From Desulfosudaceae bacterium (GTDB lineage Bacteria; Desulfobacterota; Desulfobacteria; Desulfobacterales; Desulfosudaceae), in assembly GCA_963674745.2 (NCBI GenBank), contig CAXXDV010000003.1, forward strand, positions 2,304,001 to 2,368,000: a stretch of 64,000 bases of DNA, given 5' to 3'. A model generated the notes under the pieces. The model did no database searches and was not told where the DNA came from. It saw nothing but the letters and a program-made list of their open reading frames with translations. The position numbers were made by a program, and so were the translations under genes. Positions 26,143 through 45,211 of this stretch are shown here, one piece after another (position 1 is the stretch's first letter; every line of letters starts with the position of its first letter).

Positions 26143-26336
26143 TTGTAGATCTGGCCGACATGAATCCCCAGCTCCCTGGCCACGTCCGCAGCCGTCCGGT
26201 CCGGTAAAGATGCTAACCGGCCCGCCTCTCGCCGATAAGACTCTGAATATATTCTTTTCTTCCCAGCCATTTGACACCTCCTTTTAGGTATATAAACCTA
26301 ATTGATTAGGGTGTCTACTTTTCGTGGGTAACTCCG
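26137..26336 (-). pseudogene. IS3-family left end and truncated orfA (HTH) fragment (copy 1)
   Basis: IRL-like CGGAGTTACCCACGAAAAGTAGACACC; MAGKKRIYSESYRREA...VARELGIHVGQIYNWR. Confidence 0.8.
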
Positions 26337-26338
26337 CA

Positions 26339-26463
26339 AGCTAACGTCCGCCACCACCGGCAAGCAGGGCTTGCAGACTTCGCTAAAGTGAGTTTAACAC
26401 CAACCTATGCCTGAACCCAAGGCCGACCGCCCCTGCGAGTCCGTGTGAGTGGCATTGATATGT
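26339..26463 (-). repeat. attC family A; inverse core mutated (ACATATC)
   Basis: Family A arms; expected ACATAAC given cassette core GTTATGT. Confidence 0.85.
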
Positions 26464-26465
26464 TT

Positions 26466-27407
26466 TTATTTTGCCCCAGCCTGTTTAAGTAGTTCAACTA
26501 GTTCTTTATGCACACGGGTTTTTGATGCGAGCGATAAAGCCGTTTCACCGTCATTGTCTTTAGCATTAACCTCTGCCCCGCTTTCCAATAGCGCTTTTAC
26601 GACTTCAGTATGGCCGTTAATGGATGCATTAATTAATGCTGTTGCGCCTCTCTGGTTTTTGGCGTTTATCTCTGCCCCGTTTGCCAACAACGTTTTTATG
26701 ACTTCAACGTTTTCATTAATGGATGCATAGTGCAAAGCTGTCGAGTCTTTATCGTTTTTGGCGTTGACCTTCGCGCCACTTTCCAACAGCGCTTTTACGA
26801 CTTCAATATGGCCAAACCGGGAGGCTAACCTCAAAGCTGTCCAGCCTTCATTGCTTTCGGCGTTTACCTCTGCCCCTCCTGCCAGTAACGTCTTCACGAC
26901 TTCAACATGGCCATCTTGGGATGCCTTCTGCAAAGCTGTAATGCCTTCATTGTTTTTGGCGTTTACGTCTGCCCCGCTTACTAACAACGCTTTTACGACT
27001 TCAATGTGGCCTTCCTGAGATGCTATCTGCAAAGCTGTAAAGTCTTCATTATCTTTAGCATTGACAGTTGCTCCGTTTGCCAGAAGAGTTTTTACAACTT
27101 CAGCATGGCCACACTTGGATGCATTCATCAAAGCCGTTGCGCCTTTTTGGTTTTTGGCGTTGACTTCTGCCCCATTTGCCAACAGCGATTTTATGACTTC
27201 AATGTTTCCACCAATGGATGCATAGTGCAAAGCTGTCGATCCTATATCGTTTTTGGCGTTGACTTCTGATCCACTTTCAAGCAAGGATTTTACGGCCTGA
27301 ATATCACCTTTCTCGGCTACGGTGAATATATCGACATCATCCCTGGTACATGCCGGAATAGTTAATGGCAAGACAAAGAAAACTAGAAGAACAACTAAAT
27401 ATCTCAT
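26466..27407 (-). CDS. Ankyrin-repeat lipoprotein (cassette)
   Basis: ~9 repeats of TALxxASxxGHxEVVKxLLxxGAxVNAK; lipobox LTIPAC. Confidence 0.93.
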   Translation of the reverse strand: MRYLVVLLVFFVLPLTIPACTRDDVDIFTVAEKGDIQAVKSLLESGSEVNAKNDIGSTALHYASIGGNIEVIKSLLANGAEVNAKNQKGATALMNASKCGHAEVVKTLLANGATVNAKDNEDFTALQIASQEGHIEVVKALLVSGADVNAKNNEGITALQKASQDGHVEVVKTLLAGGAEVNAESNEGWTALRLASRFGHIEVVKALLESGAKVNAKNDKDSTALHYASINENVEVIKTLLANGAEINAKNQRGATALINASINGHTEVVKALLESGAEVNAKDNDGETALSLASKTRVHKELVELLKQAGAK

Positions 27408-27419
27408 GATTGTTTTAAA

Positions 27420-27543
27420 ACATAACGTCCGCCACCACCGGCGAGCAGGGTTTGCGGACTTCTTAAACGTTAGTTCAACACCACACTATGCTAAAACTAA
27501 GGCAGCACGCCCCTGCGAGTCTGTGTGAGTGGTGTTGTTAGGC
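27420..27543 (-). repeat. attC family A
   Basis: GCCTAAC...GTTATGT, 124 bp. Confidence 0.9.
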
Positions 27544-28029
27544 ATTCTCCTCATAACATATTGCTTCGAAGAATGATATTTTGTCCTTTAAAACAACCCT
27601 AAATGTAACTATTTTGTCATTCTTTCTATATTGAATTATATGACCAAAAAAAGAATCTTTAATCGTACAAATTGATTTAACGGGTATAGATACTGGTCGG
27701 AAGAAAATCCCACAGAAAATATTAAATGGAAAATGTAATCCGATTTCTACTCGATCTGATGTTACGTTTATCCAAACACAATTATTGCCACCCAAAACAT
27801 ATAAAATGCCTGCTGATGTCCATGTTTGTTCATATAGATAATCTGTATTTGAATGATAGAATATTGTATTACCAGTTTTTAAGAGCGCTATTGTTGATAA
27901 GCTGAGGTAGCTTACAATAAAAATTATGTTGTAAAAGTCACCTATCCTAAACCAATTGTAAATTCCCCAAAATAGTAAGATTCCGAAAGCAATGAAGCAT
28001 AATATTTCTATCCGACGGTTCTTGTTCAT
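27538..28029 (-). CDS. Membrane hypothetical protein (cassette)
   Basis: Two TM segments; stop lies in the attC inverse core. Confidence 0.7.
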   Translation of the reverse strand: MNKNRRIEILCFIAFGILLFWGIYNWFRIGDFYNIIFIVSYLSLSTIALLKTGNTIFYHSNTDYLYEQTWTSAGILYVLGGNNCVWINVTSDRVEIGLHFPFNIFCGIFFRPVSIPVKSICTIKDSFFGHIIQYRKNDKIVTFRVVLKDKISFFEAICYEENA

Positions 28030-28259: not shown

Positions 28260-29164
28260 ATGAACGATTCGGAAGTAAAACGTTTCAACCGGCTTTATGA
28301 GAGGCACCTGGAGTTGCTCAAGCTTCAGGGTATGAGTCCGAGGACCATTGATCTCTATGCCCGTTCAGTCCGCCGCATTCGTAACCATTTTGATTGTTGT
28401 CCCGACCATTTGCGTCCGGAACAATTGGAAGGTTATTTCTCTCAGCTGGTGGATAGCCATTCCTGGAGCACGGTCAGGGTTGACCGTAACGGCTTGCAGT
28501 TCTTCTGGCGGTATGTGCTCGGAAAGGACTGGGAATGGATCAAGATCGTCAAACCGCCGAAAGTCAAAACCATACCGGACATTCTTACCGTTTCCGAAGT
28601 TGAACGGATCATCGGCAAAACCAAGAAATTGCGTTACCGGGTATTTCTGCTGACAACCTATTCCATGGGATTGCGTCTGGAAGAGACGTTGTCCCTCCAG
28701 ATCGGAGACATTGATGCCGAACGCAAAAAGGTTCATATTCGTCGGGGCAAAGGCCATAAAGATCGAATGCTGCCGTTGCCGGACCTGACGTTGCTGGGCC
28801 TGCGGGAGCTTTGGTGTAAGCATCGTCATCCTAATTTGTTATTTCCCAATTGCAAGGGGTCTTTAGAGACCATCCGGGCGGCCACCAACTTTATGGATAA
28901 AGGCGGCTGCCAGAGGGCCATGAAAGTCGTCGTCGCCGAATGCGGCATTAAAAAAAAGTATCCATCCACTCCTTGCGACACAGTTTTGCCACCCACCTGC
29001 TTGAACGCGGCTTAAGCCTCCGACACATCCAGGCCTTGCTTGGCCATGCCAGTCCCTCCACAACAGCACGTTATACGCATCTAAGCGATATAACGGAGCA
29101 GGACAGCCTGACTGTCTTAAATGAGTTGATAAATACAATCCATGTTGATTTTAGAAAGGTATGA
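28260..29164 (+). CDS. Tyrosine recombinase split by a -1 frameshift at A8G (28950-28958)
   Basis: Frame 1: SAM-like N-terminus, [16 protein letters not shown]; frame -1: [17 protein letters not shown]...TTARYTH. Confidence 0.88.
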
Positions 29165-30216
29165 TTATGGAACTGGCATCAATTATTGATCAGTACGCTG
29201 ACAGGTTTATGGAAAAGCACGGCCAAAAAGCCTTGCCGGGGCATCTTAAAGCCTTGCGTGCCATACGCAGGTGCCGCACTCCTGCCTCCGGAGAATTTTA
29301 CGTTCAGTGCCCCGGCTGCCAACATGGACAATGGAAACCAATGTCCTGCGGGCACCGGAGCTGCCCCAAATGCCAGAATCATGAGGCCAGTCAGTGGATC
29401 GACCGGCAGCAGGAGAAACTGCTTCCGGTGCTTTACTTTATGGCGACGTTTACGCTGCCGTTTGAACTCCGTCCGCTGGCCTGGAACAATCAGCGGGATG
29501 TATATTCAATCTTCTTTTCCTGTGTGTCCGAAACACTCAAGGATTTTGGCTTAAACCCGAAGCAAATGGGCGCAGAAATCGGTTTGACCATGGTTCTGCA
29601 TACGAACACCCGAAGTCTGGATTATCATCCTCATATCCATGTGGTGGTGCCCGGCGGCGGGATTGATAAGCGCCGGCGACAATGGAAAAAGAAAAAAGGA
29701 AAATATCTGTTTAATGAGTTTAACCTGGCCACGGTCTTTCGTGCCCGTTTTCTGGCCGCTTTAAGAAAAGCCGGCCTTTATGTGCCTAAAAACACACCTG
29801 CGGAATGGGTCGTGGATTGTGAAAAGGTCGGTAACGGGCTCCCGGTCATAAAGTACCTGTCCCGGTACTTATACCGGGGTGTAATCAGTGAAAAGAATAT
29901 TGTGGCCAATGAAAATGGCCGGGTCACCTTCAGGTACACTGAAAGCGGCACCGGCCATACCCGTTATCGTACGCTTGACGGAGAAGATTTTCTCCAGCTC
30001 ATTCTGCAGCATGTCCTGCCCAAGGGCTTCCGCAGGGTGCGCGATTACGGGTTTCTTCATGGCAACGCCAAAAAGACGCTGCAACTGGTGCAATTGATCC
30101 TGCATGTCCGGCTTGGAATAAAAACCCAACGCCCAAGGCCTGCTGTAAAGTGCCCCCGTTGCCACATCCCGATGGTCATCAAAGGGTTCCGTTACGCGGC
30201 CTGGAAGCCCGGATAA
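29161..30216 (+). CDS. IS91-family (Y2/HUH) transposase
   Basis: Zn-binding CPGC...[37 protein letters not shown]. Confidence 0.94.
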
Positions 30217-30475: not shown

Positions 30476-30922
30476 TTAATTTTTCGGACATTCTCCATAA
30501 AAAGCCATTTCGGGATAATTTGATCTCAAAATATTATAGATAATATTACATTCTTCTGAGAAATGTTTTTCGGGATCAACATTAAAGCAAGCGCTCTGAC
30601 TAAATTGGATAAATATTTCTTTTGACTCTTCTTCGCAAACACGTACTATTGATAATCTCGAAAAAGATTCTTTTTGTGCCTCAAACAATACAGGATATGT
30701 CCCCCCATATCCATCAGATATTGTATTATTCCCATCGTTTTGATTATCTTCAGATATGATGTATTTCTCCCGCTCAAGATCCTTGCTGAACGATGCCATA
30801 AATTCGGCGAGCTGATCTGCTGAGAAGATTTTATGGCCCGCAACATGAAAACTATTCATCTGAACGACACACGAACAACCAGCACAATATAATATTGTCA
30901 TTGTAAGTATGAATGGTCTCAT
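30476..30922 (-). CDS. Putative lipoprotein (cassette)
   Basis: LYCAGC lipobox-like; ATG 13 nt after GTT core. Confidence 0.72.
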   Translation of the reverse strand: MRPFILTMTILYCAGCSCVVQMNSFHVAGHKIFSADQLAEFMASFSKDLEREKYIISEDNQNDGNNTISDGYGGTYPVLFEAQKESFSRLSIVRVCEEESKEIFIQFSQSACFNVDPEKHFSEECNIIYNILRSNYPEMAFYGECPKN

Positions 30923-30928
30923 TGTGTT

Positions 30929-31046
30929 TTCTAACGTCTGCCACCACCAGCAAGCAGGGTTTGCAGACTTCGCTAAAGTGAGTTTAACTCTAAATTACGC
31001 CAAAACCAAGGCAGCCCGCCCCTGCGAGTCTGTGTGAGTGGCGTTG
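30929..31046 (-). repeat. attC family A interrupted by IS110; inverse core displaced to ~32663-32669
   Basis: ...gagtggcgtt | IS | gttaactg; matches cassette core GTTAACT at 32974-32980. Confidence 0.88.
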
Positions 31047-31134
31047 ATAATCATTGAGCCTCCCCCTTCAAACAGCATACCATTATGCTGAGAAATTGGA
31101 GTTGGCAAAAACCAAAAACAAAGGAGGAAGCCCA

Positions 31135-32178
31135 ATGAAATTCTATACCAAACAGCACAAGTATTACTGCGGTATCGACCTTCACGCCAGATCACTGTAT
31201 GTCTGTATTCTGGACAGTGACGGTCAGGTTGTTTATCACAAAAAAATCAAATCAAAACCGGATGCACTCGAACGTGCGATCTCCCCCTTCCTGGACGATC
31301 TTGTCATCGCCGTGGAATGTATGTTCTCCTGGTATTGGGTAGCAGATTTCTGCGAAAACCGCAATATTCCGTTTATCCTCGGACATGCCCTTTACATGAA
31401 AGCCATTCATGGCGGCAAGGCCAAAAACGACAGGATCGACTCATACAAAATTGCCAGCCTGATCAGGGGCGGCAATTTCCCGGTGGCCTTTGTATACCCC
31501 GCCGCGATGCGGGCCACCCGGGACCTGCTGCGAAGAAGAATGCATCTGACGCGCAAACGGGGCGAACTCATCGCGCATATCCAAAACACCAACACCCAGT
31601 ACAACCTGCCGGAGATCGGAAAAAACTTAAAGTACAAAGCCAATCGCAAGCTGGTCGAAGATCGATTTGACGATCCCAGCGCCCAGAAAAGCATTGATCT
31701 GGATGTCCAGCTGATCGGCTTTTATGACCAGCAGCTTTCCAGCGTTGAATATCATATCCTCAAACATGCCAAGGGCCACGATTACCACAGCTATATGCTG
31801 TTGAAATCCGTTCCGGGCATCGGCGACATCATCAGCCTGGTCATCTTGTATGAAATCTACGACATCAGCCGGTTCCCGACCGTCCAGGACTTTGCCTCGT
31901 ATGCCCGGCTGGTCAAATGCAGGGCAGAGTCAGCCGGAAAAATCTACGGCACCTCCGGCGCCAAAATCGGCAACGCCCATTTAAAATGGGCCTTTTCTGA
32001 AGCAGCCGTCTTATCCATAAGAGGCAACGAACCGATCAAGGCCTATGTCAATAGATTGACCAAACGGCACAGTAAAGGAAAATCACTTACCATCCTGGCC
32101 CACAAGTTAGGCCGGACAGTGTATTATATGCTCAAACATAAGGAACCGTTTAATATGGAACGGTTTCTTCCGACGTAA
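31135..32178 (+). CDS. IS110-family DEDD transposase/recombinase
   Basis: CGIDLH, VEC, KNDRIDS, SVPGIG, ESAGK, GNAHLKWA; AAGGAGG RBS. Confidence 0.95.
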   Translation: MKFYTKQHKYYCGIDLHARSLYVCILDSDGQVVYHKKIKSKPDALERAISPFLDDLVIAVECMFSWYWVADFCENRNIPFILGHALYMKAIHGGKAKNDRIDSYKIASLIRGGNFPVAFVYPAAMRATRDLLRRRMHLTRKRGELIAHIQNTNTQYNLPEIGKNLKYKANRKLVEDRFDDPSAQKSIDLDVQLIGFYDQQLSSVEYHILKHAKGHDYHSYMLLKSVPGIGDIISLVILYEIYDISRFPTVQDFASYARLVKCRAESAGKIYGTSGAKIGNAHLKWAFSEAAVLSIRGNEPIKAYVNRLTKRHSKGKSLTILAHKLGRTVYYMLKHKEPFNMERFLPT

Positions 32179-32181
32179 AGC

Positions 32182-32640
32182 TTGCCGCCACAGCTTGATG
32201 CCTAACTGGGACCTGTGAAAATGACTTTGACAGTGATATGTGAAATTGAATTTCTGCAGCCCGACTGCTTAAATATCAATAAAGCAACCGGTTGGGATCC
32301 CTTGGCGTTGATTAGAGTGGCGGCATTTAAATAATAAACGGAACAGGAAACGCTGCGCCTTACCCGACCCTGCATTATAACTGGATGGTCACGGCAGTAT
32401 CGTGATCAACCCCGACCTTTGAATAGGGCGGCATGAGGTCACCGAATATATTCTAGGGCGTTTACCACTGTGTTGTTCAACTTGGTAAACCGGCAGCAGA
32501 TACTGCGTAAGAGACCCTCAATATGTGTTTGTAGCAGCTATTTTACTACGCGCTTTGAATTAAAGACAGTGAGTCCGTTCTGTTTAAAAAACGGAAAGGG
32601 GGAGTAAAAACTCAGGCCCTAAAAAATTTTTATTCCCTAT
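32182..32640 (+). ncRNA. Candidate bridge/seek RNA in the IS1111-type non-coding end
   Basis: Two stem-internal-loop units sharing TAACTGG...TTGAnTAG; segments match target and element ends. Confidence 0.55.
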
Positions 32641-32737
32641 TGACTCCGGGCGGCTCATATGTGTTAACTGATTTTGTTTATAAAATTTCTTGTTAGATAA
32701 ATAATATTTAAAAAACAAATTTTTAAATCTTTTGTCA

Positions 32738-32968
32738 TTATAATTTTGGACTAAATTTTAATAACATTTCACGAATATATAGAATGACCATTATGGGCCA
32801 CGCTAAAAAACTTACAATTATAAAAAATATTAAACGTGCAGATAAATGGTAAAGAGCAAATTTGATTGATGCATTGTGGCCTTTAATTGAATTGTTCAGA
32901 TCTATAATTATCCATATTATTAGCCATACAAAACCTACAGCAATATATGCACAAAGAAAATTTTTCAT
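32738..32968 (-). CDS. Small membrane protein (cassette)
   Basis: Two TM segments; ATG 12 nt after core. Confidence 0.65.
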   Translation of the reverse strand: MKNFLCAYIAVGFVWLIIWIIIDLNNSIKGHNASIKFALYHLSARLIFFIIVSFLAWPIMVILYIREMLLKFSPKL

Positions 32969-32973
32969 ATTAC

Positions 32974-33096
32974 AGTTAACGTCCACCGTCACTTGGGAGC
33001 AGGGAAAGGTGACTTTTGCAAAGCCACGTTAACACAGAACCACGATACTATAAAAGCAGCCCGCCCCTGCGAGTCAAGTGCATGGTGTGGTTATAT
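32974..33096 (-). repeat. attC (family A variant)
   Basis: ATATAAC...GTTAACT, 123 bp. Confidence 0.88.
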
Positions 33097-33447
33097 GGCA
33101 ATTACATTCATTATTGCCTCTTTATCTTTAGTTTTCAGAACTTCAACAAGTTTTTTAACACGATTGATGGACTTATCAAAAACTGGAGATGTATTCTCAA
33201 ACGGCAATAATAGTTCAAGACTTGTTTCGGCTTGCTTCAATGCTTCATTAAAATTTTCTAAGCGAGCGTATGTACAGGCAATACACTCTATTAATATCGG
33301 GGTTCCACCTTCATTTTCCGCAAATTTCAGCGCAAGATTATAATGCTTTAGTGCGTCCTCGAAATTACCTTTGCGAATATTTTTGTGGCCTTTGCCCTCA
33401 TGCCATCCCGACATCATTGAATGATATATTTCTTTTACCGGATTCAT
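33091..33447 (-). CDS. TPR-like protein (cassette)
   Basis: GNFEDALKHYNLALK, YARLENFNEALKQAE. Confidence 0.72.
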   Translation of the reverse strand: MNPVKEIYHSMMSGWHEGKGHKNIRKGNFEDALKHYNLALKFAENEGGTPILIECIACTYARLENFNEALKQAETSLELLLPFENTSPVFDKSINRVKKLVEVLKTKDKEAIMNVIAI

Positions 33448-39084: not shown

Positions 39085-39104
39085 TAATTTTCATATCATA
39101 AGAT

Positions 39105-39228
39105 TCATAACGTCCGCCACCACCGGCGAGCAGGGTTTGCGGACTTCGCTAAAGTAAGTTTAACACCAAACTACGCTAAAACCAAAGCAGCACGCCCCTG
39201 CGAGTCAGCGTGGGTGGTGTTGTTATAT
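39105..39228 (-). repeat. attC family A
   Basis: ATATAAC...GTTATGA, 124 bp. Confidence 0.9.
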
Positions 39229-39663
39229 TTAAAAAAAATCTAATTGCGATATTACAGCCGCCAAAATAATTGCAATAATAATTGCGCCTAATGCAAGTGC
39301 CAAAAACTGGAAGGCTATTGCCCCGCCTCCAAGAACTGCGGCCCCTCCGGCAACTCTGAGAGATTCGTTTTTAATAAAAGCCACAACTGCAATGATAATC
39401 GCTATGCCACCCAAGAGCGCTGTGATCACATCAATTATTTTGTCTGCATCCCATTTCGACGACCATTTTTCTTCTTTTACTTCTTTACCTTTAAGGGCAG
39501 CAACTGTCGCATCTCTTATGGCAACTGCTTTTTCAGCAATGGTTTGCTCTAACTTTGGCTGTGGTGCGAAAGGTCCTGCGTAAAAATGGAATAACGCCAA
39601 CAGCAAAGCAATTGACCCGATAATAACACCGATAATTCCGATCTTTGATTTCTCTTCGTCCAT
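39229..39663 (-). CDS. YidI-like inner membrane protein (cassette)
   Basis: GSIALLLALFHFYAGPFAPQP-LEQTIAEKA and KNESLR...VLGGGAIAF resemble E. coli YidI as recalled, not searched. Confidence 0.7.
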   Translation of the reverse strand: MDEEKSKIGIIGVIIGSIALLLALFHFYAGPFAPQPKLEQTIAEKAVAIRDATVAALKGKEVKEEKWSSKWDADKIIDVITALLGGIAIIIAVVAFIKNESLRVAGGAAVLGGGAIAFQFLALALGAIIIAIILAAVISQLDFF

Positions 39664-41457: not shown

Positions 41458-41473
41458 TCTGTAATTTTCTGAA

Positions 41474-41597
41474 ACCTAACGTCCGCCACCACCGGCGAGC
41501 AGGGAATGGTGACTATTGCAAAGCCACGTTAACACCAGACCACGAAATTTAAAAAGCAGCCCGCCCCTGCGAGTCCGTGTGAGTGGCGTTGTTAGCT
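41474..41597 (-). repeat. attC family A
   Basis: AGCTAAC...GTTAGGT, 124 bp. Confidence 0.9.
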
Positions 41598-41602
41598 CTT
41601 TT

Positions 41603-42641: not shown

Positions 42642-42921
42642 GCCCGCATTATTCAGAAAGACTTTAACGACAGCATGGGCAAATAAAATAAAATGATATT
42701 TTTCTTTTTACGCCTTGTCCATCATGAACTTATGAAAACGGGTAGGTCTCTTTTCATCCGGACAAATAAAGGCGCATTATCATTTGGCCGCGCCAGTTCG
42801 AAATTACAATTTATCTTTACTGGCCGAAAAATTCAACTTGGTGACAATTACCATTTTGGCAACGAATGTCGATTTCAGCCAAAATTCTTTTTTTTATTTT
42901 TTTCCCGTACAGAATCAGTGC
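42642..42921. other. ORF-less cassette, copy 1
   Basis: Duplicate of 40673-40952. Confidence 0.8.
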
Positions 42922-43045
42922 ACTTAACGTCCGCCACCACCGGCGAGCAGGGTTTGCGGACTCCGCTAAAGTGAGTTTAACTCCAAATTACGCCAATACA
43001 AAAACAGCCCGCCCCTGCGAGTCCGCGTGAGTGGCGTTGTTAGAT
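42922..43045 (-). repeat. attC family A
   Basis: ATCTAAC...GTTAAGT, 124 bp. Confidence 0.9.
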
Positions 43046-43073
43046 TTATTTATAATTTTAAGGATAGAATAAG

Positions 43074-44011: not shown

Positions 44012-44085
44012 ACCGAACAGTGTAATAAATGGAAAATTTTTCCATGTTATTGACTCATATATGTGGAAAATTTTCCATTTATTAC
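44012..44085 (-). other. attI site (core G|TTCGGT at 44018-44012; upstream extent approximate)
   Basis: GTTCGGTGC matches the inverse core of the first attC; no attC arms upstream; lies 5' of intI. Confidence 0.85.
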
Positions 44086-44218
44086 TATTATTAAAGGGGT
44101 AAACGTGGAAAATTGTCCGCATTATTTTCCACGTTTGCTTTTTCCAATATATTATTCTTGTAATTTTCCATTTATTACCATATTAAAGGGGCAAACATGG
44201 AAAGTTGAAAGGGTCATC

Positions 44219-45211
44219 ATGGAAGATAAACCCAAATTCCGCCCCAATCCCCAGTTGAAATTGCTCGATCAGGTCCGCCAGGTCCTTCGATATCATCATT
44301 ATGCCTATAGCACGGAACACACCTATAGTCACTGGATCAAACGTTACATTTATTATCATGGTGGTAAAACCCATCCCCGTGAATTAAACGAGAAAGACAT
44401 TGAAAATTTTTTATCGCATCTGGCTACAAATGTCAACATTGCAGCTACGACCCAGCGACAGGCATTGAACGCCCTGGTGTTTTTGTACCGTGAGGTGCTG
44501 GATATCCCGCTGACGAAAAAGATTGCGCCGGCCAAGGTAAAAAGGCAAAGCCGACCTCCAACGGTCTTAACACAACAGGAGACCGCCCGGCTTCTGGAGC
44601 AGATGACCGGCACCAATGCGCTGATGGTCAAACTGATGTATGGTTCCGGTATGCGCCTGATGGAATGCATCCGTCTGCGAATTCAAGATATTGATTTTGG
44701 TCAGGGGAAAATTTTCGTGCGGGGCGGTAAAGGGGGGAAAGACCGGGTCACTCTGCTGCCGTCAAATATCCAGGAGAAACTCCAGCATCATATTGGCCGG
44801 GTAAAACAATTGCACAGGGACGATCTTGAAGCGGGTTACGGCCGGGTGTATCTGCCCGGAGCGCTGGCCAAGAAATACCCTGACGCACCAACCAAAATCG
44901 GCTGGCAGTATGTTTTTCCGGCCAAAGAACGATCGTTGGATCCGCGTTCAGGTAAAATACGACGTCATCATGTATTGGGATCCACCCTGCAGAAGGCCAT
45001 CCGCACGGCTGTACGTCGGGCCAGAATAGACAAACGGGTTTCAAGTCATACCCTGCGGCACAGTTTTGCCACCCATATGCTTGAAAACGGGGTTAATATA
45101 AGAGTGCTGCAGGAGCTTCTGGGGCATGCTGATGTGAAAACCACCGAGATTTATACCCATGTGATGAGAAAAGATATTGACGGCTTGAAAAGCCCGTTGG
45201 ATCTGCTTTAA
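44219..45211 (+). CDS. intI: Integron integrase
   Basis: LLDQVR..LR..HYAYSTE.TY, YGSGMRLME, GKGGKDR, integron-specific insert (VYLPGALAKKYP..WQYVFP..RRHH), [24 protein letters not shown]. Confidence 0.97.
   Translation: MEDKPKFRPNPQLKLLDQVRQVLRYHHYAYSTEHTYSHWIKRYIYYHGGKTHPRELNEKDIENFLSHLATNVNIAATTQRQALNALVFLYREVLDIPLTKKIAPAKVKRQSRPPTVLTQQETARLLEQMTGTNALMVKLMYGSGMRLMECIRLRIQDIDFGQGKIFVRGGKGGKDRVTLLPSNIQEKLQHHIGRVKQLHRDDLEAGYGRVYLPGALAKKYPDAPTKIGWQYVFPAKERSLDPRSGKIRRHHVLGSTLQKAIRTAVRRARIDKRVSSHTLRHSFATHMLENGVNIRVLQELLGHADVKTTEIYTHVMRKDIDGLKSPLDLL

Follow-up and report, generated by a model that had tools for sequence, protein, structure and literature searches.

An IS1111-family element in an integron attC site of a Desulfosudaceae bacterium and its predicted guide RNA

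Insertion sequences (ISs) of the IS1111 family that target attC sites have been described with a seekRNA that was purified and sequenced (ISKpn4, ISPst6) or predicted (ISPa25), and in the report concerned (Siddiquee et al. 2024, PMC11187229) the IS1111 arrangement has the top-strand-pairing segment 5′ of the bottom-strand-pairing one. For IS621, left guides are described as pairing with the bottom strand and right guides with the top strand, each including the core (Durrant et al. 2024, PMC11208160); the same report locates the donor-binding nucleotides of many IS1111 elements in a multiloop and gives predicted bridge RNAs for 93% of IS1111 elements. In the description of ISEc11, a promoter is formed only by the joining of the ends in the circle. 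Here, an element of this kind was analysed in a 64,000-nt stretch of a Desulfosudaceae bacterium genome (GenBank assembly GCA_963674745.2, contig CAXXDV010000003.1, positions 2,304,001 to 2,368,000, forward strand; hereafter the window), for which a preliminary description had proposed an attC-targeting IS1111-type element at 31039..32665 with a candidate guide RNA in its 3′ non-coding end. The results make it very probable that window positions 31045-32663 hold an intact IS1111-family IS, brought to the inner edge of the inverse core (R″) of the attC site by site-specific recombination that was guided by RNA and took place at a TG dinucleotide.

The element and its insertion site

The intact 1.6-kb element (window 31045-32663, both shared TG dinucleotides included) is made up of a gene for a 347-aa DEDD transposase, 10-bp subterminal inverted repeats and a 483-nt 3′ non-coding region (Table 1). 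The transposase has the DEDD/RuvC-like N-terminal and IS110-type C-terminal domains of IS1111 elements (PF01548 DEDD_Tnp_IS110, residues 12-155, E 4.6e-16; PF02371 Transposase_20, residues 222-305, E 1.5e-18), and scored 208.3 bits against NCBIfam NF033542, 'IS110 family RNA-guided transposase' (cut-off 140). The inverted repeat arm TGAGCCTCCC (31055-31064) matches the complement of GGGCGGCTCA (32648-32657) at 9 of 10 positions, and 483 nt of non-coding DNA lie downstream of the transposase gene (32179-32661) compared with 88 nt upstream (31047-31134), as is typical of IS1111. Together, the two Pfam domains, the NF033542 score, the subterminal inverted repeats and the long 3′ non-coding region bear out the IS1111-type assignment of the preliminary description. 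Beyond the inverted repeats, the terminal extensions are 8 nt on the left (ATAATCAT) and 4 nt on the right (TATG), plus the shared TG; for IS1111, a left extension of 7 (or 6) bp and a right one of 3 bp are given, and the gap may be a matter of counting convention.

The repeat flanking the element is approximately 125 nt in length, and a fuzzy pattern search of the whole genome found 75 attC-like copies of it in several arrays. An integron integrase gene 11 kb from the IS, one of three such genes in the genome, scored 428.9 bits against TIGR02249 (cut-off 265). Cassette open reading frames (ORFs) between the repeats are mostly on the minus strand and directed away from the integrase gene, including one at 32738-32992 that ends 68 nt before the IS and one at 30476-30922 that starts 9 nt from the attC repeat; these attC sites thus have the minus strand as their canonical orientation, and the transposase gene is oriented opposite to the cassettes. 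The repeats, the integrase gene above its curated cut-off and the cassette ORFs place the insertion in the attC site of an integron cassette, the target that characterises the attC group and that the preliminary description had named.

Comparison with uninterrupted attC copies, which end ...GAGTGGCGT-TG-TTAT (GGCGT-TG-TTAT), defined the boundaries of the element. The interrupted site reads ...GGCGT-TG-ATAATC... at the left junction and ...CATATG-TG-TTAAC at the right junction, and as TG is common to both, the IS is either 31045-32661 or 31047-32663, so that the frame first proposed was slightly too wide. The conserved ends of attC sites are designated R″ (RYYYAAC) and R′ (GTTRRRY), and the IS is located at the inner edge of the inverse core R″. 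Insertion at the integrase crossover point G|TT was the first idea, and it was dropped when the orientation of the cassettes put the site in the inverse core. Likewise, GTTAGGC, which had been taken for the attC core consensus, is the complement of R″ and not the GTTRRRY crossover core; the further observation that GCCTAAC in the non-coding region is its complement stood, and this string proved to be part of a guide segment that tracks the flank.

A search of the bacterium's own genome with window 31000-32700 gave 51 matches, approximately 46 of which are short and cover the first 50 nt of the query, which is flank and not IS. The others are the window copy, a second full copy with 99% identity, a copy with just the first 853 nt of the query, and fragments of 136 and 139 nt equal to window 32531-32666, making a total of five insertions or remnants of this IS. 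The two full copies are in different attC sites, with flanks that are unlike on both sides, indicating that the 1.6-kb unit moved whole. All three copies that retain the left end follow ...GGC(G/A)T-TG, and all five right ends precede TG-TTA(A/G) in attC-like sites; insertion of the own-genome copies is thus sequence-specific, at a single position of a defined target.

Structure and guide segments of the non-coding region

Relatives were collected from one genome per species. A relative was encoded in 555 of 578 stretches, and the best 79 loci of the 555 were kept (53-78% protein identity), originating from Desulfobacterota, Nitrospirota, Acidobacteriota, Planctomycetota, Spirochaetota, Gammaproteobacteria and others. 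Subtraction of 7 own-genome or partial untyped loci and addition of 7 further copies and 2 window-genome copies gave 81 examined loci (L numbers below). Ends could be parsed in 54 of these and not in the other 27; two false parses (L013, L066) were dropped, the right end was unparsed in two loci (L032, L082), and 49 non-coding regions were carried on, of which the 42 distinct ones were aligned with MAFFT. In nearly all relatives, the gene is preceded by (T/G)G-ATACT and an inverted-repeat arm, and followed by TTGAC, the other repeat arm, TA(A/T/G)G and then (T/G)G-TTRRR. Right flanks are attC-like in all relatives. Conservation extends to the left-end motif, the inverted repeat, TTGAC and the right end, and approximately 40 relatives have the same ends and the same non-coding architecture as the window IS.

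Consensus folds of the non-coding region were based on 30 of the 42 sequences, chosen by eye for non-redundancy, for the first structured part (unit 1), and on 28 for the downstream fold, two sequences with long inserts being omitted. The basal stem of unit 1 has 9 bp, all nine of which show changes on both sides that keep pairing, in 4 to 15 of the 30 sequences; including two additional pairs and an inner stem (32208-32213 / 32294-32300), compensatory changes were seen in 14 of 16 pairs. The loop strands between these stems are 32196-32207 and 32301-32313. Downstream, a second helix with an internal loop (unit 2) and a long-range stem that closes a multiloop together have compensatory changes in 10 of 18 pairs; the long-range stem itself has five pairs, one covarying (UA 12, CG 7, UG 5, GC 1) and four nearly invariant. 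As a single sequence, the whole non-coding region folds with z = -2.85 relative to shuffles. Conserved secondary structure with compensatory changes, as expected of a seekRNA or bridge RNA, is therefore present. The motif strings of the preliminary description are at the places that it gave (GCCTAACTGG at 32200-32209, TTATAACTGG at 32375-32384, CTTTGAATAG at 32417-32426), as is its stem GCCGCCAC/GTGGCGGC at 32184-32191 / 32318-32325, and the motif frames of units 1 and 2 are alike (xxYUAAC-UGG and xxxYUU-UG-AxU). Both of its stem/loop units are conserved structures, although the region has three structured parts and not the two that it described.

The preliminary description had asked for covariation of loop sequences with flanks across homologues. 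The letters to the left of six anchor columns of the alignment were compared, in register, with the flanks or ends of the same element (own) and with those of elements with a different guide (cross), using 5000 permutations for significance; in addition, the context of each junction was scanned blind at 48 offsets per strand. The unit 1 3′ strand matched the left flank at a mean of 3.75 of 8 positions in own pairs and 2.57 in cross pairs, and the unit 1 5′ strand, read antisense, matched the right flank at 5.64 and 4.72 of 9 positions, respectively (36 distinct pairs in each case); none of the 5000 permutations reached the observed value in either test. The correspondence is readable in individual relatives, as in the 5′ guide/right flank combinations GCAUAAC/GTTATGC (L062), GCACAAC/GTTGTGC (L077) and GCCCAAC/GTTGGGC (L046), and the 3′ guide/left flank combinations UGUGCAU-UG/TTTGCAT-TG (L060) and ACGAGU-UG/GCGAGT-TG (L068). 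In the bacterium's own genome, GTTAGGC, to which GCCUAAC is exactly complementary, is found at three of the five right junctions.

Two further segments were found to follow the ends of the IS. The segment before UG-UUUGG (32516-32525) matched the right IS end at 5.13 of 8 positions in own pairs and 4.14 in cross pairs (0 of 5000 permutations; 23 distinct pairs), and the two variable bases beside the core equalled the right end in 100% and 83% of own pairs (n=23) compared with 54% and 32% of cross pairs. The segment before UC-UAGG (32440-32453, antisense) matched the left IS end at 5.49 and 4.72 of 12 positions, respectively (0 of 5000; 35 distinct pairs), the best of 96 registers being the minus strand at offset 26 (core G plus left-end positions 1-9). 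Segments that match the donor IS ends, as expected of a seekRNA, are accordingly present as a copy of the right end (32516-32527) and a partial antisense of the left end (32440-32453), with weaker support owing to co-inheritance of guide and end. For all four positive segments, the blind scan gave the largest own-minus-cross difference at the predicted register, and nothing comparable was seen for unit 2.

A mutual information scan of non-coding against flank columns linked window 32309 to the first core base at the left junction (z 13.2), and was otherwise uninformative, with lineage effects dominant, which is why in-register identity tests were used. Among loci whose left junction has GG in place of TG, L034, L042, L045 and L048 also have GG as their loop core, but L074, L085 and L089 have UG. 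Five copies in a Holophagales genome (L045, L046, L047, L049, L050) have G as first core base at the left junction in all five and G, T, G, G and T, respectively, at the right junction. This pattern indicates that the left first core base travels with the IS and the right one comes from the target, an origin that bears on the place of strand exchange.

The three guide strings proposed in the preliminary description all fall at positions that vary with flanks or ends. TGGCGTTGAT, at 32303-32312, equals the left junction 31039-31048 and lies in the flank-tracking 3′ strand of unit 1, GCCTAAC lies in its 5′ strand, and ATATGTGTT, at 32521-32529, equals the right junction 32657-32665 and varies with the right end. 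The last of these is located in the third, multiloop part. Unit 1 is read here as the probable target-binding loop, 32440-32453 and 32516-32527 as candidate donor guides in a multiloop, and unit 2 as an additional arm, an interpretation drawn from sequence comparison.

For unit 2, none of the comparisons distinguished own from cross pairs: its 3′ strand matched the left flank at 2.71 and 2.67 of 8 positions (2149 of 5000 permutations; 35 distinct pairs), its 5′ strand the right flank at 4.39 and 4.14 of 9 (518 of 5000; 36 pairs) and the left end at 3.51 and 3.73 of 12 (4833 of 5000; 35 pairs), and its 3′ strand the right end at 1.73 and 1.70 of 8 (2213 of 5000; 33 pairs). Unit 2 thus showed no covariation with any flank or end, and no guide role was detectable for it. 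A role as second target loop was not supported, as 518 and 2149 of the 5000 permutations reached the observed identity with the flanks. A two-loop model like that of IS621, in which unit 2 is the donor-binding loop and the third part a mere spacer, draws on the motif frame that unit 2 shares with unit 1 and on its being the best conserved part of the non-coding region; against this, its variable positions match neither IS end in register, no offset or strand stood out in the blind scan, and the left end is almost invariant whereas the unit 2 5′ strand varies, which leaves the two-loop model improbable. Also unlikely is a reading of unit 2 as a third loop of guide type, paralogous to the target loop, with a UG 'core' of its own and kept in all 42 aligned relatives. 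In that case it would recognise a third DNA partner, for instance the donor flank when the element is excised, or the generic inverse core of another attC site, and the RNA would have three DNA-reading loops and not two.

The candidate donor guide that contains ATATGTGTT (32516-32529) could also be a relic second right end, left by a nested or duplicated terminus, beside a real element and target loop, with the last 135 nt constituting a separate small element and no donor guide being present. Such a relic would fit the occurrence of the stretch ~32531-32666 alone at two other attC sites and the resemblance of the segment to the right end over approximately 12 nt, and since guide and end are co-inherited, duplication too predicts their covariation. 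However, each of the 42 aligned relatives, which represent many phyla, has retained the internal segment as well as the distal right end with its inverted repeat and TTGAC, indicating that the pair is maintained rather than decaying, and the two variable bases track the right end in the proportions given above. In addition, the segment is followed by conserved UG-UUUGG, mirroring the UG-AUUGG of the target loop, the non-coding regions of ISKpn4 and ISPst6 contain, by eye, a like motif that differs as their ends differ, and both full copies moved as a single 1.6-kb unit. A relic right end is accordingly considered unlikely, and the segment is retained as a candidate donor guide.

Whether the short matches could arise by chance was assessed with 5000 mononucleotide shuffles of 32179-32640, compared with 30-nt windows on both junctions and on both strands. 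A left-junction match of at least 10 letters occurred in 79 shuffles, a right-junction match of at least 9 letters in 373, and both together in 3. On the window alone the junction matches are therefore moderately unlikely, which is suggestive and not decisive, and the weight comes from the relatives. That the matches are chance, or DNA-level binding sites for protein in which no guide RNA is involved, is consistent with these unremarkable single frequencies and with the negative Rfam scan and lone RNA-library contig described below, and conflicts with the rarity of both matches together, with compensatory base-pair changes in the stems that fit RNA, with flank covariation in the strand arrangement of validated seekRNAs, and with the naming of the protein family as RNA-guided in NCBIfam; this explanation is considered highly improbable.

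Proposed mechanism and genomic surroundings

The mechanism proposed for the element is based on homology with ISEc11, ISKpn4 and IS621. The element would be excised as a circle, the joined ends of which would create a sigma-70 promoter (TTGACT-17 nt-GATAAT) reading through the transposase gene into the 483-nt 3′ non-coding region. The resulting transcript would fold into the target-binding loop (32183-32325), the additional helix (32357-32439) and the donor multiloop closed by 32352-32356 / 32534-32538. In the target loop, the bottom strand would be bound by the 3′ strand UUGGCGU-UG, which has left-flank sense, and the top strand by the 5′ strand GCCUAAC, the antisense of GTTAGGC in the right flank. 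The circle junction would be held in the multiloop by CCUCAAUAUG-UG and CACCGAAUAUAUUC jointly, the former copying the right IS end and the latter being in part antisense to the left one, and the DEDD transposase would exchange strands at TG. Production of the RNA, its binding by the transposase, the circle, the activity of the promoter and strand exchange are all inferred by analogy with those systems.

The promoter geometry was computed from the window: joining of the ends gives TTGACT, 17 nt and GATAAT, in which G plus ATAAT at the left end of the IS is the predicted -10 box. A junction promoter would explain the strong conservation of GATACT/GATAAT and TTGAC. A scan for promoters and terminators gave five promoter-like sites compared with 3.1 expected and four terminator-like sites compared with 2.0 expected, none at a telling place. 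The strand arrangement found here is the published one for the IS1111 seekRNA, IS621 and the IS1111 multiloop, an agreement on which the reading of the region and its most likely mode of action are based.

Several observations weigh against this proposal. The mean own guide-flank identity is imperfect (3.75 of 8 and 5.64 of 9), and the right junctions of both full copies read GTTAAC or GTTAAG and not GTTAGGC. As donor guide and IS end are co-inherited, the permutation test overstates the significance of the donor segments, the signal of which is carried by only 2 to 4 positions, and the long-range stem that would close the donor multiloop has a single covarying pair. The 81 examined loci yielded 42 aligned non-coding regions, and all counts are based on these. 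A permissive Rfam scan of 30500-33200 gave no family match and no curated bridge or seek RNA. A circle junction (right end joined to left end) was not seen in the contigs of four sequencing runs, although contigs drop rare forms and cannot show absence. The sole hint of expression comes from a sediment sample: in its oligo-dT RNA library, one contig of 235 nt spans 32437-32665 with a single difference, and it could be DNA carry-over. Element parts left uncovered by the RNA libraries carry no information.

Table 1 Features of the IS1111-family element and of the surrounding integron (window positions)
Position	Strand	Feature	Basis
30931..31044	-	Larger part of the interrupted attC (canonical orientation minus), left flank of the IS; ends ...GAGTGGCGT	attC-like repeat, fuzzy pattern
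31045..31046	+	Left copy of the shared (core) dinucleotide TG	Comparison with uninterrupted attC
31047..31134	+	Left end of the IS: 8-nt extension ATAATCAT, inverted repeat TGAGCCTCCC (31055-31064), ribosome-binding site	Motif parsed in relatives
31135..32178	+	Transposase gene, DEDD/IS110 type, 347 aa	Pfam and NCBIfam matches
32183..32325	+	Unit 1, probable target-binding loop; basal stem 32183-32191 / 32317-32325	Compensatory changes, guide-flank tests
32197-32206	+	Unit 1 5′ guide GAUGCCUAAC, antisense to right flank GTTAGGC	Own vs cross identity
32302-32312	+	Unit 1 3′ guide UUGGCGU (32302-32308) with core UG (32309-32310) and AU (32311-32312)	Own vs cross identity
32352..32356	+	5′ arm GCUGC of the long-range stem closing the donor multiloop; pairs with 32534-32538	Consensus fold
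32357..32439	+	Unit 2, conserved helix with internal loop (UUAUAAC-UGG ... CUU-UG-AAUAG)	Covarying helix pairs
32440..32453	+	Candidate right-donor guide CACCGAAUAUAUUC, partly antisense to left IS end	Own vs cross identity, moderate support
32516..32529	+	Candidate left-donor guide CCUCAAUAUG with core UG and UU, containing ATATGTGTT	Right-end identity, blind scan
32534..32538	+	3′ arm GCAGC of the long-range stem	Consensus fold
32539..32661	+	3′ tail and right end: -35 box TTGACT (32640-32645), inverted repeat GGGCGGCTCA (32648-32657), extension TATG (32658-32661)	42-sequence alignment
32662..32663	+	Right copy of the shared dinucleotide TG	Comparison with uninterrupted attC
32664..32670	-	Right flank of the IS: what is left of R″, the attC inverse core (plus-strand reading TTAACTG)	Window and genome copies
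44063..45211	+	Integron integrase gene, divergent from the cassette array holding the IS	TIGR02249, Pfam integrase domains
near 26330-26465, 27410-27545, 30931-31046, 39095-39230, 41465-41600, 42910-43050		attC sites in the window	attC-like repeats

Several partial copies of the element were seen at other attC sites. Solo copies of the last 135 nt (C1:1481764-1481899 and C1:2287284-2287422; equal to window 32531-32666) lie in attC-like sites with right flank GTTAGGC; their left edge is 3-7 nt past the donor-type segment, and their two junctions are not identical. They look as if the internal right-end look-alike had been used as a pseudo-end in a deletion. A truncated copy at C3:1843563-1844415 (window 31000-31852) consists of the first 808 nt of the IS fused at ...CTTGTATG to TG-TTAGGC, and its breakpoint is like the right end CTCATATG at 6 of 8 letters. 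At the attC sites at window ~26453-26470 and C1 ~902332, the sequence reads ...GGCATTGATATGT... and ...GGCATTGATAATCATT, respectively, and then becomes unrelated; the same IS may have left a footprint and a stub of its left end, 9-11 nt long, here.

Among the relatives, the Vibrio campbellii plasmid locus L093 (1068-3544) has tandem IS110-family transposase genes adjoining an IS4-family gene, the second of the tandem genes being the 62%-identical relative. L017 (1641-1868) has a 22-nt insertion after the core of its donor-type segment and before the conserved UUUGG, which would part the guide from its frame.

The window contains a complete integron, with the integrase gene divergent from a minus-strand cassette array, and the 75 attC-like repeats of the genome, with its three integrase genes, form at least six arrays, two of which are long and are without an adjacent integrase gene. 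The neighbouring 'cassette' at 28260-30216 (+) has two ORFs that run against the cassette direction, one of 251 aa that is tyrosine-recombinase-like and one of 351 aa for a Y2 transposase of IS91 type that includes a zinc-binding domain. The recombinase-like piece has four copies in the genome, every one in a cassette array, and 28260-30216 is a second mobile element resident in cassette arrays.

As the IS parts the inverse core from the rest of the attC, it should block cassette excision at this site and fuse the neighbouring cassettes.

Comparison with described elements

Guidance by an element-encoded RNA and the targeting of attC by some IS1111 elements, both of which the preliminary description took as established, are in print (PMC11187229). 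A literature search joining attC, IS110 and 'bridge RNA' returned only Durrant et al., and one for 'IS1111-attC' returned no paper on this clade, as judged by title and abstract. In a plasmid collection, the best matches outside the element's own clade were at most 32% identical. Two of these were considered as named attC relatives and rejected, namely a Pseudomonas aeruginosa match (30.8%), which is IS1111-type at a site that is not attC-like, and a Klebsiella match (23.8%), which adjoins iutA. As far as these plasmid matches show, the lineage appears to differ from that of the described elements.

As described in the sources used, ISKpn4, ISPst6 and ISPa25 share with the present element the IS1111 type, subterminal inverted repeats, a guide RNA encoded just downstream of the transposase stop, a top-strand match 5′ of the bottom-strand match, an attC end that reads ...GTTAG in the orientation of the IS and a right end that finishes CATATG. 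The insertion point differs. For ISKpn4 and ISPst6 it is given in a review table as ...GAA*CGAATTGTTAG, 6 nt to the left of GTTAG, whereas here the exchanged TG overlaps the G of GTTAG (...GGCGT-TG-TTA), approximately 6 nt nearer the inverse core than in the IS1111-attC group (ISKpn4, ISPst6, ISPa21, ISPa25). The non-coding region is also about twice as long, at 483 nt compared with the ~260 nt, compact loop and 82-86-nt seekRNA reported for the ISKpn4 group, and approximately 80 nt (32214-32293) are inserted between the two target guides. In the non-coding regions of ISKpn4 and ISPst6 given in the supplement of PMC11187229, a right-end-like ATATG or ATATA followed by CG and ATTGCA/AATGCA was noted by eye, and the right ends of these elements finish CATATG and CATATA; by eye, this motif is probably the same kind of donor segment as 32516-32527.

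Like IS621 as reported, the element has two guide pairs, each with a core dinucleotide, the left guides in top-strand sense and the right guides antisense; a discontiguous right-donor pairing, as described for IS621, is a further point of agreement. Unlike the present element, IS621 has its RNA in the left end upstream of the gene, core CT, two loops that are both simple internal loops, and inverted repeats of 2-3 bp. ISEc11, as described, resembles it in having a junction promoter (here predicted from the sequence) and a seekRNA in the 3′ non-coding region, and differs in using a short linear target and not attC; its retargeting is reported to need matching donor flanks.

By these comparisons, the element is an ordinary, intact member of a published class, from an environmental lineage and with a slightly shifted insertion point, and the concept is already in print. 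Since the class of mechanism is established, its value is as a resource and for integron biology. Within the clade there are approximately 40 natural orthologues, spread over at least eight phyla, whose target and donor guides can be read and whose flanks are known. They form a comparison set for the rules by which IS1111-type recombinases, a group that has received less study than IS621, set guide length, tolerate mismatches and choose a core.

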